From positions 1-20,279 of the forward strand of contig NZ_PQWO01000042.1 in the NCBI RefSeq assembly GCF_003231495.1: DNA of 20,279 bases, given 5' to 3'. Position 1 is the stretch's first letter. Each line of letters opens with the position of its first letter. A program made the position numbers and the translations under genes. Shown piece after piece: positions 1,551 through 16,623 of this stretch. The notes under the pieces are model-generated. The model was not told where the DNA came from, searched no databases, and saw only the letters and a list, made by a program, of their open reading frames with translations. Source of the DNA: Acaryochloris thomasi RCC1774 (GTDB lineage: Bacteria; Cyanobacteriota; Cyanobacteriia; Thermosynechococcales; Thermosynechococcaceae).

Positions 1551-4500
1551 TCAAATCCCCCCGCTAGTCCGATGGGCAGATCGCTTGAGCCACAAATAAG
1601 TGGATGGAATAAAGTAGAGAGCTAGTAGTGTTGCACCACCCAAGCCACCAGCAATTGCGATCGCAAGCGGGGGCCAAAACCCAGTCGGATCTAACATGAG
1701 CGGCACAAAGCCAATAATCGTAGTTACCGTTGTGGCAATGATGTGGCGCGTCGCTTTCAATACAACCTCTTGGGTGGCTTTGCGATCTCCTTGACGAGCT
1801 AGAGGATCAGCCTGCAGTGCGGCTAATACCACAATCGAATCATTGAGGGCGAGACCAATCAGCCCTAGGGTTCCGAGAATGGCTGTGAATCCAAAGAGGG
1901 CGTCAAAAGTCCATAGGGCGAGGGCGGCTAAACCGATGGCTGCGATCGCAACGACAGCCAACACCCCCGCCAAAGCGAAAGAGTTAAAGGACAGCACCAG
2001 AATTGCCGTCATCAGAACCATCAATACACCTACGGTAGAGAGAAGATTACCGACAGCACTTCCCCTTGCATCAGCCTCGCCGCCGTACTCAATCCGATAG
2101 CTAGGAGGGAGTCCAAAATTAAGATCTTTGAGTTGCTGCTGAAATTGGGTGAGGACCGTATCCGGTAAAGCTCCAGCCGTTAGAAATGCCTGGACGGTAT
2201 TGATTCGTTGACCGTCTCGACGAACGATGGTGCTGATATCCGGTACCAGGCTTGTCGAGGCCAGTGCTCCGAAGGGAACTCGACTGCCGTTGCTAGATAA
2301 CAAATCGAGCGATTCAATTTGGGAAAGATTCCCCCGTTGGCGATCGGCAAGACGGACCCGCACGGGTAGCTCTTCAGTGCCCTCTAAAATGGAGCCGCCT
2401 GTCACACCGTCCAAACTGCTGTTGAGCTGAGTTGCGATCTCACCATTATCTAACCCAGCCCGTTGAGCGATCACTTCATCGACAGTAAGGGCTAACTTAG
2501 GTGCAATTTCGGTCAAGTCTGCCTGGGTGTGAATCACGTTGGGTACCTGGGCCAACATCCCTCGCATTTGATTGCCGAGTTCTCTCAACTGATCGATATC
2601 AGGACCATAAAGCCGCAGCTCAATAGGGGCATCGAAGGGTGGTCCCTGTTCCAGTTGTTTGACTAAGATCTGTGCTTCGGGGAAGTCTCTATCTAGCTTG
2701 GTTTGTAACGTCTGAACGGTCCCGCGCAGGTCATCAGTATCGTTGAGCTGCACAATCCCTTGGGCATAGTTGGCGGCATTCCGACGATTGCTGATGATGT
2801 TATAGAAAAAAGAGGGCGCACTTTTACCCAGAAACCATTGCACATCAGCCACTTTAGGATGTTCTTGCATCACCTCGCGGGCTTTTAGAGCTAGAGTTTG
2901 AGTGGTTGAGATCGCGCTTGTCGCAGGCAGCTCAATTTCCACCTGAAACTGGTCGCGGTTGGTGGGCGGAAAAAACTGCTGGGGCAAACTCGCAAACTGG
3001 ATAAATCCAGTGATGGGCAACACCATCGCTAAAATAATTCCCAAAATAGGCCGCCGGAAGACCGTCGCCAGACTCCAGCGATAGACGGTTGTCAGGCGCG
3101 AGTTTGCGAATCCATGCACCCACCAACGTTTTCGTGCAGGCTGTGGAAAACGCTGATGCATTAGACCCGTTAGGGCTGCAATCACCGTCAGCGACAAAAC
3201 CAGCGAGCTGATCAAAGCTAGAATGACCGTGCTGCCAATCGTGCCGATAAATTCTCCCGTCCCTCCCGGTGAAGTCGCGATGGGGACAAAGGCCAACACC
3301 GTAGTCATCGTCGAAGCCAGCAGCGGAACGGCTAATTGCTTAACGGCTTGCTGAATCGCTTGGGCGGGCGTTCCCCCTGCTTGCAGATGGAGTTGCACCT
3401 CATCTACGACCACAATGGCATTATCAATCAGCAACCCCAGAGAGATAATCAGCCCCGTCACAGACATCTGGTGGAGCGGAATGCCTAGGGATTTCATAGC
3501 TCCGAACACGGTCAGAGTGGCTAAGGGCAATGCGGCCCCCACAATCAGAGCCGATCGCCACCCCAGAATTACCAGCGATACTCCAACCACCAGGAGAGAA
3601 CTCATCACTAAGTTGCCAACCACCCCATTCAACCGCTGTTGAACGTAAAGACTTTGATCTAGAACAACCGTCATTCCTATACCATCAGATAAATTCGTTT
3701 CAAAGGTGTTCAGAACCTGATGGGCTTGCTCCGCCCAAGTATCGACCCGAAAGTCAGACTCTACGGTTGCAGAAACGACAATGGCAGGTTGTCCATCAAT
3801 CAGGGTCAGATCTGAAACGGGCTGCTGAACGCCCTTCGTGACTTTGGCAATGTCACCCAGTTGGGCGACTTTCCCGGTTGCTTCCACTCGAATCGGAATC
3901 CGCCGCACCCGTTCGAGGGAATCGAGATTACTGCTCACTTCGAGTAACAGCTCATCTTGATTTCGCAACTCCCCTGCCGAAACTTTGGCATCGCTGGCGT
4001 TGATTTGCTGGGCGAGAACCTGAGCTGTCAATCCTAACTGAGCGAGTTCTGCAGAGTCTGCCTCCACGAGAATCTCTTCATCCGGTTCACCAAATATCTC
4101 TACCTTGTCAGTGCCTGAAACGTTACGCAATTGGGCTTCAAGTCCTTCTGCCACGCGGCGCAAAATGGCAGAATTGGCAGGGGAATCCAGTTCCCATTTT
4201 AGGCCCACAATGAGGGCGCTAGCCTTGACGCCACTGTCTTCATACTCTGGTTCTAAGGCTTCTGCCGGTAGCTGAGGGGTGACATCTTCGAGCTGACTGC
4301 GAACTCTGGCCCAGACGGGATCGACGTTGCGGATATTCTCTTTCAGTTCGATGGCAACGACGGATAGCCCTGGATTGGATGTGGATTCGAGGCTATCGAT
4401 TTCTTCAATTTCAGATAGCTCTTCTTCGATTTTATCGGTGATCAAGGCTTCGACTCGCTCTGGGCTGGCACCGGGAAAAACTGTGGTGACGGTAGAGTTT

Positions 4501-4737: not shown

Positions 4738-5761
4738 TCACTCGCAATAATCATGGTCGCGGTACCACGCTACGGTGTCCCTCAAGGTTTCTAAGAGTGG
4801 TCGAAAATTGACATCTAGGACATCCATGGCCTTGGCCGAGTTGAACTGCTGCTGCGTCAGCATGATTTTGACGACATCCACTGACAAATCCACTAGTGAC
4901 TGCCCGGTTAATCGACTGATCAGTGTCAGTAGCCGAGCCAGGAGATGCATGGCCCATCCGGGCAGTTTGCGCTGGGGGCCTTTCACGCCGCTGACCTCAG
5001 ATAGGGTGGTGAGGATTTCTCCGGCTGAGTGGTATTGACCACCAACGAGATATCGTTCACCGGATTGCCCCTGCTTAACGGCGGTGATCATTGCTTGGGC
5101 GACATCACGGGCATCAACAATTGAGAGGCCTCCGGTTAAAATAAACGGAACCTTTTGCTGGAGAAAATTCAATACAAACCGACCGGACTCCGAGGGGGCA
5201 GCATCACTGGGGCCAAAGATTGTGCCGGGTTGAATCAACACGATGGGAAGGGAACGGTGCTCTAGGAACTGATCAACAGCGGCCTCTGCCATGACTTTGC
5301 TTCTGAAGTACAGATTGTCGATATTGAGTTCGCCGGGGAGAGAAGACTCGTCGCTGGGGCTTCCATCGGCCATCAGACCGAGACAGCCCGATGTACTGAC
5401 ATAGATAGATAACTTTCTGGATGCCTGCTTGGTCTGCGGCTTCCAGCAATGAGAGCGTGCCTTGAATATTAATTTGCTCTAGCTGGGGCCAATGGTCGCC
5501 CAATCCGTAATATTCACGGAAATAGGCGGCGGCATGGAATAGGATGTCGCAGTCCTGTAGATGAGATGCAAAGTTTGCCACGGCCCTCATGTCTCCCTGC
5601 ACGAACTGAAGGTAAGAATGATTGCCGAGAACTCGCTGTCCTTTTTCGATGGAGCGCACTAGGGCTTGCACTTCATATCCCTGGCGTAGTAAGCAGGCTA
5701 CTAAATTACTGCCCAACAGGCCTGTGCTTCCGGTGACAAATGCTTTCATGGCCCTACTCAT
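4738..5761 (-). pseudogene. extended-SDR NAD(P)-dependent epimerase/reductase (dihydroflavonol-reductase-like), split by a +1 frameshift
   Basis: Two overlapping ORFs (5273..5761 and 4738..5373) form one SDR. The Rossmann motif VTGSTGLLG is in the first ORF and the catalytic YFRSK in the second. Homology-like sequence ends at ...QKVIY in frame 1 and resumes as VSTSGCLGLMADGS in the next frame, at the repeat ATAGATAGAT (5401-5410). This is either a genuine pseudogene or an assembly error. The ATG at 5761 overlaps the stop of the upstream adaptor gene; an alternative ATG lies at 5749. Confidence 0.8.
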
Positions 5762-9737: not shown

Positions 9738-10688
9738 CTATTGCGGAATGTGCTGGTAGGTCTTGGCCATCGATTGAAACTCAGGCATATATTGCGCGGC
9801 ATCATCCTGACCCACGATGCCAATCATGATGACGTAGCCCCCCGCCTCGGGGAACAGCATGGCTTGATAGATCTTTAAAGGGACTTGGGATTGGCTATCT
9901 TTGGCGTTGGCAATGATTTCGAAACCCTCTTGGTTGTTAATTGCGATCGCATCTACCTTTGCCACCTCGATCTCCTGAATTTGAGAGAACTGTTCTAACC
10001 TCTGAAGGGCAAACATCTTGCGATCCAGCACAGGCACAGCCCCTAAAGAAGGTGCCACAATAAACAATGGGTCAGATGGAGACTGCGCGGGGGCAACGCC
10101 ATCCTTAGAGAACGCTAAGACCTTGCCAGATCCCTGCAGTTCTTTGACTTCAACCAATTGAGCAGAAGGTTCAATGCGAAAGGGCAGCACGCGAGCCTCA
10201 GCGGACTGCGGTATCAGAGTCGCCGACAAAGCCGCTTCTTTGAGGGGGGCGCTCAAGCGATCCGCCGCATCCTCTGGGAATGTGGCCACCACCACCTTGG
10301 TCTGATTCTGCTGATCGGCAAACACCACCAGCCATTTTAAGAATTGCTGTCCGTAGGCTTTCTGAGACACTTTAAGCAGCAGTCTTGATCCATCCCCTAA
10401 GGACTGCTTAGAGAGCAAGTGCAAACCTCGCGTCGCTAACCGCTGCGAATTAAACCCTTTCACCACCTCGGCATATGGCCTTGGGATGGCGCTAACCATA
10501 ATAGAGGCCCCCGTTTCTGGCTGCTGTACGCCGTAAAAGGTAGGAGCCTTTTCAAACCCCTCCGGCGGCTCAATACTCACCCCCACTTCTGGAAAAGATT
10601 CTAGAGTCTGAGGCTGGACCGTTTGCCCCCGAACAGGCATCGTGGCCTGAAATAGCAGCAGCCCAATAAATATAGCCTGACGAAGCAT
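9738..10688 (-). CDS. secreted hypothetical protein, 316 aa, apparently two tandem alpha/beta domains
   Basis: ATG at 10688. Sec signal peptide MLRQAIFIGLLLFQATMPVRG|Q. Coding-like composition, with no catalytic motif recognised. Confidence 0.7.
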   Translation of the reverse strand: MLRQAIFIGLLLFQATMPVRGQTVQPQTLESFPEVGVSIEPPEGFEKAPTFYGVQQPETGASIMVSAIPRPYAEVVKGFNSQRLATRGLHLLSKQSLGDGSRLLLKVSQKAYGQQFLKWLVVFADQQNQTKVVVATFPEDAADRLSAPLKEAALSATLIPQSAEARVLPFRIEPSAQLVEVKELQGSGKVLAFSKDGVAPAQSPSDPLFIVAPSLGAVPVLDRKMFALQRLEQFSQIQEIEVAKVDAIAINNQEGFEIIANAKDSQSQVPLKIYQAMLFPEAGGYVIMIGIVGQDDAAQYMPEFQSMAKTYQHIPQ

Positions 10689-14981: not shown

Positions 14982-15188
14982 CTAACCAGCGGTAGGGTGG
15001 AAGAGCGTGTCCAGATAAACGCGAGCCGCCCGGCGATCGCTTTCGCCGTGCTGAAGCAGAAAAAGTGATAGAGCTGCTGAAAAGACACGGTCTTGATCCC
15101 AGTCGGGATGCGCCTCTAGATAGCTCTTCAAGGTCTCATGAAGCTCTTCAGGTATTTCAGCCAAAATGCTAATTGTCGTTGCGTTCAT
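14982..15188 (-). CDS. small conserved cyanobacterial hypothetical protein, 68 aa (DUF2811-like from memory)
   Basis: MNATTISILAEIPEELHETLKSYLEAHPDWDQDRVFSAALSLFLLQHG... matches my recollection of a conserved family (SILAExPEELH..L..xL..HP.WDQDRVF.AALSLFLLQ). I prefer the ATG at 15188 over the longest-ORF start at 15269. Confidence 0.65.
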   Translation of the reverse strand: MNATTISILAEIPEELHETLKSYLEAHPDWDQDRVFSAALSLFLLQHGESDRRAARVYLDTLFHPTAG

Positions 15189-15548
15189 GAACAGTGACCT
15201 TCTGTGATGTGGAGATGGAATGTAACTAACCTCTACCTCTAAGATTTTCGCAGCGAAACGAAGCCCCAAGCTGCCGCGACAAACCCATAAAGGGTATGGC
15301 TCTTTGCAAGATGATGGCTAGAGAGTACCGGCACGTTACTGGACCGGTCGCACCATTATTTGCGATCTAGGGGTGGGATTGTCAATGGGGGGACGGAGGA
15401 AGTCTAAGCGGATGCTTGAGCGACCTTCACGACAGATTAGGGCTTCCTGGCGTTTTTGGTTACATAAATTCAATTCCTCCTGGGGAAATTGCTCAAATCC
15501 GTCGAAATCCACAGAACTGCGGCTGGCCCCAATAAACTCGTTCTTCCC

Positions 15549-15621
15549 TGTGGAAAACTTCTGCTTTTCTGTGGAAAACCTCTTGATAAGTTGTGGAAAA
15601 ATTCCTTTGGTCTGTGGAAAG
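15549..15621 (-). promoter_or_regulatory. phased array of four DnaA boxes (TTTTCCACA x3 and CTTTCCACA x1, read on the minus strand)
   Basis: TGTGGAAAA at 15549-15557, 15570-15578 and 15592-15600, and TGTGGAAAG at 15613-15621. All share one orientation with start-to-start spacing of 21/22/21 bp. The spacers are not conserved. The array lies in a non-coding region between divergent genes. Confidence 0.75.
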
Positions 15622-15750
15622 CCTGGGGAAATCATTTTTGAATGATTAAAATTACAAATCTCTTTGAAAAGTCAGCATCTGATCATCTGACGAGCGGATC
15701 GGCTAATCTCTGCTAGCGACTCTGTTCTGCGGCCCGACACCCTTGACAAA

Positions 15751-16623
15751 ATGTTCCATAATATTGAGAGATCTACTGAACGCGGTGTCAAAAAGGATTC
15801 CCATGACAGGAGCTTCTTCAGGAGTTTGCAGAACAATGACAGGTCAAGTCTCAACTCTTCGGCAGCTGAGTCGCCGTTACCGGTGAAAGATCTAAGATCG
15901 AGCCAACGCCCCAAACGGTCTAGTCGAGTCATCAATCGGTTGCTGAAGACTGCGCTTAAAGCGTGGCTGAGATCGCAACTCACCTCTATTGCCGATCTCA
16001 AGATTGAAGTGGAAGGTTGCGATCTCAACCTTTTAGCAGGCACCATTCCAAAAGTTTGCTTGATGGCAGAGAAAGCCGTTTATCAAGGCATTCATTTCAG
16101 CAAGATTGATATTGTTGCCCATCAAATCCAGGTCAACCTCAAGCAGATTCTCAGAGGCAAGCCCCTGCAGCTCATGCAGCCCATTCCCATTGAGTTTTCT
16201 GTCTTGCTGCAGGCCACAGACCTCTACCAATCACGTACCGCTCCCCTAATGCAGTCAGCGGTACGTGATTTGTTGCAAGTACTGCTCAGAACATCACAAG
16301 AAGATGCGATCACAGATGACGCCCTATCTTTGCCAGCCATCAAGATCCAAGAGATTCAGTTTAAGAATAATGGGTTTATATTAAAAGTACAGGTGCCCTC
16401 TGTAATAGATTCCTCGACTGCCACACTCGAAACTTGCCTCACCATTGGTCACCCCCAGGAACTGCTGTTCTATGACCTCACCTATCAAACAGAAAGCAAA
16501 CACAATCATTTAGAGCAGCCTCAGACGACCTCAATCAACCTGGGTACCCAGGTCAACCTAAAATCGCTGCTCCTTACGCCTGCTTCACTCATCTGCAAGG
16601 GACAGATTGAAGTGCAGCCCTAG
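15751..16623 (+). CDS. DUF2993 / LmeA-like protein (cyanobacterial type); start uncertain
   Basis: From about residue 60 the sequence fits my recollection of cyanobacterial DUF2993 proteins: LLKTALKAWLRSQLTSIADLKIEVEGCDLNLLAGTIPKVCLMAEKAVYQGIHFSKIDIVAHQIQVNLKQILRGKPLQLMQPIPIEFSVLLQATDLYQS. The first 60 residues are S/R-rich low complexity. An in-frame GTG at 15883 is an alternative start. Confidence 0.65.
   Translation: MFHNIERSTERGVKKDSHDRSFFRSLQNNDRSSLNSSAAESPLPVKDLRSSQRPKRSSRVINRLLKTALKAWLRSQLTSIADLKIEVEGCDLNLLAGTIPKVCLMAEKAVYQGIHFSKIDIVAHQIQVNLKQILRGKPLQLMQPIPIEFSVLLQATDLYQSRTAPLMQSAVRDLLQVLLRTSQEDAITDDALSLPAIKIQEIQFKNNGFILKVQVPSVIDSSTATLETCLTIGHPQELLFYDLTYQTESKHNHLEQPQTTSINLGTQVNLKSLLLTPASLICKGQIEVQP

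Follow-up and report, generated by a model that had tools for sequence, protein, structure and literature searches.

The window analysed here spans a whole contig (20,279 bp) of Acaryochloris thomasi RCC1774, in which a phased array of the 9-mer TGTGGAAAA lies between a DUF2811 gene and a gene of the LmeA/DUF2993 family. This 9-mer is the reverse complement of TTTTCCACA, the published cyanobacterial DnaA box (PMC4674748). Both annotated genes are shorter than their open reading frames (ORFs), and the non-coding gap between them measures ~690 bp. The locus contains the following features, numbered along the window.

14982-15188, minus strand: DUF2811 gene, 68 aa (Pfam PF10929, E = 1.7e-29); an identical 68-aa protein is recorded for A. 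thomasi RCC1774.
15355-15385, minus strand: putative proximal DUF2811 promoter, with TTGACA at 15385-15380, a 19-bp spacer and AATAAT at 15360-15355.
15479-15489 and 15622-15632: exact 11-mer direct repeat CCTGGGGAAAT.
15481-15489, plus strand: further weak box, TGGGGAAAT; it reads TGTGGATAG in locus L095, where it and the inverted box at 15505 make up a convergent pair.
15505-15513, minus strand: inverted weak box, AAATCCACA; its family-wide form is TCTGGGGATT, and it is a perfect TTATCCACA in L095.
15549-15557, plus strand: DnaA box 1, perfect TGTGGAAAA, the closest box to DUF2811; unchanged in L003, L004 and L075.
15570-15578, plus strand: DnaA box 2, perfect TGTGGAAAA; starts 21 bp past box 1.
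15592-15600, plus strand: DnaA box 3, perfect TGTGGAAAA; starts 22 bp past box 2.
15613-15621, plus strand: DnaA box 4, TGTGGAAAG, with one mismatch; starts 21 bp past box 3 and is a perfect TGTGGAAAA in L075.
15624-15632, plus strand: weak box 5, TGGGGAAAT, with two mismatches; 11 bp past box 4, after a 2-bp gap.
15630-15647: inverted repeat AATCATT-TTTG-AATGATT, lineage-specific and kept only partly in L075.
15645-15658: A+T-rich motif ATTAAAATTACAAA; across the family this motif is near-invariant as ATAAGAATT(R)CAAA.
15669-15675, plus strand: short conserved island AAGTCAG, beyond the A+T-rich motif; it reads TGACTT in the DUF2811 direction.
Annotated start near 15883: LmeA/DUF2993-family gene, 246 aa, on the other flank of the array.

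An initial annotation, made from the DNA letters, had proposed four same-strand boxes with starts 21, 22 and 21 bp apart, an 11-nt direct repeat, a weak box on the reverse strand, an inverted repeat and an A+T-rich stretch, and all of these were found where it had placed them. Within 171 bp the window carries three perfect, one one-mismatch and two two-mismatch boxes, in addition to the inverted weak box; six boxes with up to two mismatches compare with 0.47 expected (P ~1e-5), and chance alone would produce only ~8e-12 phased triple arrays in the window, so that the array is indeed beyond chance, as had been claimed. The sole other perfect TGTGGAAAA of the window lies at 3142, again in agreement with that annotation. 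The inverted weak box, the only one of its orientation in the array, ends ~35 bp from box 1, and in L095 both it and the weak site at 15481 are genuine boxes (cTGTGGATAG ... TTATCCACAg). On the other side, the A+T content reaches 81% between 15630 and 15672, versus 49% for the window overall, and the A+T-rich motif starts exactly 12 nt beyond weak box 5 (gap 15633-15644). This motif is promoter-like, with TAAAAT at 15647-15652.

The order DUF2811-gap-LmeA is retained in two relatives, L003 and L004, with all four boxes at equal spacing, and the entire gap is well conserved among close relatives. L003 is ~93% identical throughout and is thus uninformative on selective constraint. Comparison with the more distant L004 revealed 0/36 substitutions in the boxes and 11/37 in the spacers (Fisher p = 2.4e-4), and the corresponding counts for L075, a Thermosynechococcaceae metagenome-assembled genome (MAG), were 1/36 and 16/37 (Fisher p = 2.7e-5). 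Since substitutions fall almost solely in the spacers, the pattern shows the boxes, and not the spacers, to be under selection, and it rules out a recent tandem duplication, which corroborates the earlier proposal that only the 9-mer is constrained. Spacer information amounts to ~0-0.5 bit, and ~10 positions are conserved in each 21-22 bp unit. The initial annotation had also singled out the syntenic regions of relatives as a place to probe a DnaA role, and the boxes are present there. Two LmeA homologues, L001 and L002, occur without DUF2811 synteny, and LmeA was ruled out on this ground as the conserved partner of the array.

A pattern scan for TGTGGAAAA-N12/13-TGTGGAAAA-N12/13-TGTGGAAAA, performed on a collection holding one genome per species, yielded at least 120 loci, mostly cyanobacterial; the number of such triple arrays expected by chance in the whole collection is ~3e-4 (an estimate from 4^-27 and 596 Gb). 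Among the matches listed, the recurrent cyanobacterial classes are dnaA-dnaN (16 loci), DUF2811 (26), guaA (17) and CDF, a cation-diffusion-facilitator gene (24). DUF2811 thus adjoins the array in 26 of the 120 pattern-selected loci listed, and in every one of them it diverges from the TGTGGAAAA direction. The distance between box 1 and the DUF2811 start codon is 246-409 bp in 23 of these loci, ~200 bp in L080 and 665-677 bp in L083 and L098. We also assembled a box-blind sample of 80 DUF2811 loci from metagenomes, picked by protein alignment only as those most similar to the A. thomasi protein, of which 76 carry at least 600 bp of upstream sequence. At least three same-orientation TTTTCCACA-type boxes (with up to one mismatch) were found upstream of DUF2811 in 67 of the 76 loci (~88%), and at least one perfect box in 69, at positions ~-300 to -550 from the gene; downstream controls of equal length contained one perfect box in total. 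Over 101 loci, box spacing has two peaks, one of 179 intervals at 21-22 bp and one of 61 intervals at 10-12 bp, that is, at two and one helical turns. DUF2811 is the only neighbour always found with the array, in a fixed orientation, and LmeA is not a conserved neighbour. The DUF2811-linked array is conserved across several cyanobacterial orders.

Two DUF2811 paralogues of A. marina lie on records of 273 kb (CP000840.1, L125) and 303 kb (AP026078.1, L126), which are probably megaplasmids, at 10001-10213 of each locus, and small unknown genes and one of the SepF family come after each of them. No DnaA boxes were detected in the very A+T-rich ~900 bp upstream of either paralogue, and these box-free copies serve as a natural control for the link between the array and DUF2811.

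Alignment of the DUF2811-linked loci reveals that the array is embedded in a shared control-region architecture. Read towards DUF2811, this begins with TGACTT, ~11 nt, TTTGYAATTCTTAT and a further 12 nt. Two to three weak boxes at 11-bp steps come next, then perfect GTTTTCCACAGG boxes, between two and four in number and 21-22 bp apart. The inverted weak box TCTGGGGATT and an invariant TTGACA, with cAnAAT behind it at ~-193, precede the 5' untranslated region (UTR) and DUF2811 itself. The family consensus of the weak-box run is TGTGGAAAn-nn-TGTGGAATn-nn-TGrGGAAAA, and weak box 5 of the window is its counterpart. In 47 of 78 loci, exactly 12 nt separate the A+T-rich motif ATAAGAATTRCAAA from the last weak box, and the motif carries ~1.5-2 bits at each of nine positions (76 unique loci); the most A+T-rich 30-mer is located at +70 to +90 from box 1 in most of 28 loci. 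AAGTCA is invariant in four relatives and is kept in several distant loci. At the DUF2811 end, TTGACA is invariant both in a 15-locus alignment and in alignment A2, and TTGACAAnCCCACCCC occurs ~-193 from the start codon in 53 of 101 loci. Promoter-like elements thus lie at both ends of the element, ATAAGAATTRCAAA at 12 nt from the last weak box and TTGACA at ~165 bp from box 1, and the edge features that the first inspection had flagged, namely the weak boxes and the A+T stretch, are conserved parts of it. In several lineages, one or two extra perfect TTTTCCACA boxes are found near the DUF2811 start, at ~-55 to -80, downstream of TTGACA and in the presumed 5' UTR (L131, -54; L140 and L141, -65; L145, -75/-65; L148, -81/-71; L161, -72 and -199); they are absent from the A. 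thomasi window. Boxes within a 5' UTR are typical of repression.

The DUF2811 protein is itself extremely conserved, with 33 invariant positions in 20 sequences that are 75-88% identical (alignment A3). It is predicted to consist of a disordered N-terminus followed by three helices, and the structure model, with a predicted local distance difference test score (pLDDT) of 61, is too uncertain for a fold search. Profile searches identified no relatives in the PDB, there was no further Pfam match, and no mention of DUF2811 was found in the literature searched.

Phased arrays were also observed in other settings. In many filamentous cyanobacteria, guaA, which encodes GMP synthase, is closely followed by three perfect TGTGGAAAA boxes spaced 21-22 bp apart (L009, L025, L032, L042, L051, L067, L077, L087, L094, L096, L101, L105, L114, L115 and L117); L009, L087 and L117 carry a reverse box pair ~45 bp upstream as well. 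The CDF class, mostly from Microcoleus, has a three-box array ~1.1 kb from the start of the transporter gene, with strongly conserved spacers (ctTGCCgatTTC / CCCCCCTTTTCC; L008, L010, L014, L016, L027-L029, L037, L041, L043, L049, L052, L063, L076, L079, L086, L106, L108 and L123). Beyond cyanobacteria, phased TGTGGAAAA arrays occur in Saccharibacteria (L005, L039, L070 and L104), in Thermoanaerobaculia (L006, L022 and L071) and in two unclassified loci, L056 and L066, whose dense divergent arrays, with reverse and then forward boxes, are origin-like in look. The 4358-bp plasmid pSOE2 of Candidatus Pantoea edessiphila (L047) carries at least 11 TGTGGAAAA units with exact 21-bp spacing across the record junction (53-240 and 4154-4330), and this looks like an array of iterons whose core resembles a DnaA box, in a host that is not a cyanobacterium.

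The 9-mer, its flanks (cTGTGGAAAAc) and the 21-22 bp phasing match the forward arrays of 16 dnaA-dnaN origins from other cyanobacteria, in which dnaA and dnaN were identified by Pfam. Because of this origin-like pattern, and of the selection on the boxes, the most economical reading of the array is that of a DnaA-binding platform, and the initial proposal of a site for DnaA oligomerisation thereby gains support. The likeness to the cyanobacterial dnaA-dnaN oriC, as in Anabaena PCC 7120, S. elongatus PCC 7942, L109, L044, L058 and L113, includes the shared TTTTCCACA box and flanks, the same-orientation boxes at 21-22 and 11 bp, and an A+T-rich -10-like sequence that follows them (TAAGTATAATTAC in origins versus ATAAGAATTAC in the DUF2811-linked array). 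The two kinds of site differ in their flanking genes, which are dnaA and/or dnaN at origins and DUF2811 at the A. thomasi array, and in that opposite-orientation boxes and a tandem box pair are present only at the origins. In the dnaA-dnaN class forward boxes are followed by reverse boxes, and non-Nostocales loci display a tandem box pair, a GC cluster, CTACTACTACTA and an A+T-rich tract directly before dnaN, as exemplified by L109 (TTTTCCACATTTTCCACAgcccCTACTACTACTAtatttaaat). Half of the sampled origins add the GC cluster, the CTACTACTACTA trios (cf. CTACTACTA) and the unwinding element before dnaN, and no such additions were seen in the 28 DUF2811-linked arrays, the window included. The L109 arrangement is that of a textbook core origin, which reportedly (Richardson et al. 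2016) consists of a box pair, DnaA-trios and an unwinding element. A very clean version, TTTTCCACA(T)TTTCCACA with GC cluster, CTACTACTACTA and A+T-rich tract, was seen between dnaA and dnaN of non-heterocystous cyanobacteria, in L109, L044, L058, L064, L113 and L030, where it lies ~+180 to +230 from the first forward box, and also in L007 and L122; among the Nostocales loci of the sample, the trio was seen only in L007 within the 900 bp scanned.

That the array might be a non-canonically located chromosomal oriC of A. thomasi, with its unwinding element at 15630-15672, had been put forward in the initial annotation and could be suggested by the phased boxes that adjoin an 81% A+T tract. Box clusters at predicted origins that adjoin neither dnaA nor dnaN have been described for T. 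elongatus BP-1, Halothece, Dactylococcopsis and Leptolyngbya PCC 7376 (PMC4009838), a Halothece MAG (L055) carries the triple array beside DUF2811, and a 2026 study indicates that the orientation of the cluster is not always critical to origin function (PMC13643167). Nevertheless, a DnaA-trio match of at least 11/12 beside the boxes was found in none of 28 DUF2811-linked loci, the window included, versus 8 of 16 dnaA-dnaN loci, and perfect opposite-orientation boxes occur in 0/28 versus 16/16; the best trio 12-mer match of the window, between -400 and +500 bp of the array, is 8/12. Trio matches at the same threshold were likewise found in 0/16 guaA-linked and 0/23 CDF-linked loci. The A+T tract lies 3' of TGTGGAAAA, on the side opposite to that of the dnaA-dnaN geometry (TTTTCCACA, GC cluster, CTA trios and DNA unwinding element (DUE), in this order), and the A+T-rich motif was rejected as a DnaA-trio or DUE on both geometry and trio score. 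Many of the 67 box-blind loci with the DUF2811-linked array come from lineages that have dnaA-dnaN origins; one Phormidesmis MAG holds both, a richer dnaA-dnaN cluster with 10 boxes and a trio in L109 and the DUF2811 array in L110. The predicted oriC of A. marina is linked to dnaA/dnaN in a review table (PMC4009838). Linkage of the origin to dnaA and/or dnaN is usual in cyanobacteria, whereas the A. thomasi array is flanked by DUF2811 and LmeA; neither dnaA nor dnaN was found in the 20-kb contig by ORF list or Pfam matches, as had been stated before. The GC skew of the contig displays no origin-type switch, which is weak evidence given that 20 kb is barely informative. We thus regard an origin at this site as very improbable. 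Conversely, since Halothece is listed as non-canonical and L055 is DUF2811-linked, some of the published 'non-canonical oriC' predictions may correspond to the DUF2811-linked element. Origin-prediction programs that rank TTTTCCACA clusters may take this array for oriC where the dnaN-linked cluster is weak, and the DnaA-trio test separates DUF2811-type arrays from dnaA-dnaN origin clusters.

The main rival explanation, which we consider possible but less likely, is that of a datA- or DARS-like locus that mainly titrates DnaA or switches its nucleotide state and would thereby affect the timing of replication and not DUF2811, the link to DUF2811 being positional or DUF2811 acting as a co-factor. 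High-affinity boxes on one helical face, together with weak boxes at 11-bp steps, would form an oligomerisation platform, the conserved A+T-rich motif in fixed register could bind an accessory protein, a role that IHF plays at datA and DARS2, and the three-box arrays downstream of guaA and beside the CDF transporter suggest a set of chromosomal DnaA sites. Chromosomal DnaA titration is documented in E. coli (PMC12371093). However, four to six boxes offer a small titration capacity, the closely spaced boxes of the DARS core, one of them inverted, are not reproduced by boxes in one orientation at 21-22 bp, and both the strict orientation and distance to DUF2811 and the extra 5' UTR boxes of some lineages point to gene control. 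The repeats could instead be operators for another protein, for example the DUF2811 product as an autoregulator, which would fit an array that always adjoins the gene of a small, mostly helical and highly conserved protein without known function; plasmid systems for partition and control commonly have direct-repeat arrays next to the gene whose small product binds them. Such operators are improbable, as the identical 9-mer, flanks and phasing recur in dnaA-dnaN origins and, with no DUF2811 gene close by, at the guaA and CDF sites, the box repeats are missing upstream of the probable plasmid-borne A. marina paralogues, and a DNA-binding fold of DUF2811 could not be demonstrated from its structure model or from PDB and Pfam matches. 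Plasmid iterons or partition repeats, conserved over their full 17-22 bp, were rejected as well: only ~10 positions of each 21-22 bp unit are conserved here, Pfam identified no rep or par gene in the window, and the DUF2811 copies on the probable A. marina plasmids are without the repeats. Finally, it is scarcely credible that the array is a recent tandem duplication, a small coding gene or a structured non-coding RNA. Two ORFs, of 99 and 90 aa, do overlap the array, a gene is called at its position in L004 and the whole gap is well conserved among close relatives, but the overlapping ORFs measure only 42-54 aa in L075 and the 22-bp step places identical 9-mers in different frames (VEN versus CGK), and the coding reading was rejected on these two grounds. 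A structured RNA was discarded on the absence of any Rfam 15 match, at the gathering threshold or at E up to 10, and of excess folding stability, the z-scores of +0.82 and +1.49 for the two strands indicating less stability than in shuffled sequence. A conserved small RNA running rightward was likewise rejected, as terminators are not enriched downstream (8/72 loci versus 12/72 on the control strand), and the low information of the spacers excludes a recent duplication.

Comparable elements are well known in other bacteria. In Bacillus subtilis, DnaA clusters outside oriC and DnaA-regulated promoters are found at sda, ywlC, yydA and dnaA, and the clusters reportedly control the adjacent gene as well as retain DnaA. 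Like the A. thomasi array, they consist of intergenic consensus boxes away from the origin, beside specific genes, and are conserved in relatives; they differ from it in phylum and target gene, and only the cyanobacterial array has the very regular phasing (21-22 bp, with 11 bp after it) and an A+T motif in fixed register. In the regulatory region of E. coli dnaA, DnaA boxes lie between promoters P1 and P2, a layout which the array may resemble, with boxes between two predicted promoters. datA and DARS1/DARS2 of E. coli, which act on DnaA availability or nucleotide state, resemble the array as non-origin clusters with an accessory-protein site in fixed register. datA, which promotes DnaA-ATP hydrolysis, and DARS2 need IHF, whereas no IHF-like site was recognised by eye around the A+T motif of the array, no formal IHF-motif scan having been made. 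In the DARS core, box I is inverted and immediately adjacent to the others, while the strong boxes of the array share one orientation and the weak inverted box ends ~35 bp away. An origin-like second cluster, oriCII upstream of gidA in P. aeruginosa, is reported to act as a transcriptional control site (PMC13438810). In the E. coli and P. aeruginosa cases, boxes clustered in a promoter region render transcription responsive to DnaA, and the layout proposed for the array is similar to both. Unlike in the E. coli dnaA and P. aeruginosa gidA cases, the gene beside the array is neither dnaA, gidA nor a known replication gene, and its promoters are predicted ones.

We favour, with a probability of roughly 0.55, the reading in which the array is a non-origin cluster of DnaA boxes that forms part of the DUF2811 control region and serves as a DnaA-dependent operator. 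A DnaA-controlled promoter for both flanking genes had been among the initial proposals; for DUF2811, the constant partner in fixed orientation, it is the best supported option, but it does not extend to LmeA, which is not a conserved neighbour. DnaA would bind the three perfect boxes and the near-perfect one (15549-15621), all of which lie on the same helical face owing to their 21-22 bp spacing. When DnaA-ATP increases, the oligomer would spread to the 11-bp-spaced weak box or boxes, one here (15624) and two or three in most relatives, so that the last DnaA would sit at a fixed 12 nt from the A+T-rich promoter-like motif (15645-15658). In combination with TTGACA (15385-15380) and the inverted weak box (15505), this would tie DUF2811 transcription to the amount or nucleotide state of DnaA, and some titration of DnaA would be an unavoidable by-product. 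The A+T-rich motif could work in either direction. Read rightward, as AAGAAT or TAAAAT, it would have the last weak box at ~-35; read leftward, as TGyAATTCT, it would give DUF2811 a long leader in which the boxes act as a roadblock. The leftward, DUF2811-directed reading is favoured because DUF2811 is the only conserved partner.

Several points weigh against such an operator. We infer DnaA binding from the identity of the motif alone, and the promoter nature of the flanking elements and the sign of the regulation are likewise putative. Between the perfect boxes and the putative proximal promoter downstream of them lie ~165-240 bp, a long distance for simple repression, and the A+T-rich motif can be read both ways. 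Its conservation is more uniform than that of a typical -10 element, and for this reason another protein may bind there. To the right of the array, neither a conserved transcript nor a conserved terminator was found. DUF2811 has no assigned function, and the sample covers A. thomasi-like DUF2811 proteins, so that universality over all cyanobacteria, for example in Nostocales or marine picocyanobacteria, would be a claim beyond it.

A more far-reaching and speculative idea is that DUF2811 and the array constitute a cyanobacteria-specific DnaA control module, with DUF2811 as a DnaA-regulated modulator of initiation, or with the array as a counterpart of datA/DARS and DUF2811 as its accessory factor. 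A feedback loop of DnaA-regulated DUF2811 would be comparable in logic to sda, SirA and Hda. If true, such a module could explain the retention of DnaA in cyanobacteria that are able to replicate without it. The control of replication initiation in polyploid cyanobacteria is poorly understood, as is the role of DnaA where it is dispensable. The present analysis nominates DUF2811 as a candidate member of the cyanobacterial DnaA regulon and provides, beside an equally conserved gene, a defined cis-element that is a genetically testable target. A literature search found no description of non-origin DnaA-box clusters or of DnaA ChIP-seq in cyanobacteria; this kind of element is well known in E. 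coli and Bacillus, and what is new is a widely conserved cyanobacterial member.

On the LmeA side of the gap, a simple promoter scan gave a sole sigma-70-like match, CCGACA-17-CATAAT at 15734-15762 on the plus strand, and a second TTGACA is present at 15744-15749, ~120 bp upstream of the annotated LmeA start (~15883). Because of these two elements, LmeA probably has its own promoter, separate from the array. The same scan called neither the A+T-rich motif nor the TTGACA element at 15385-15380. The other genes of the window encode an RND pump, PadR, an MFS protein, an M48-like protein, a DUF3352 protein, tRNA-Val, a P450 and an aminotransferase. A 211-aa ORF at 4738-5373 on the minus strand overlaps a 162-aa ORF immediately upstream (5273-5761, minus strand). 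Its match to the NAD-dependent epimerase model covers just the C-terminal half (profile positions 125-240), and this may be a frameshifted or split epimerase gene.

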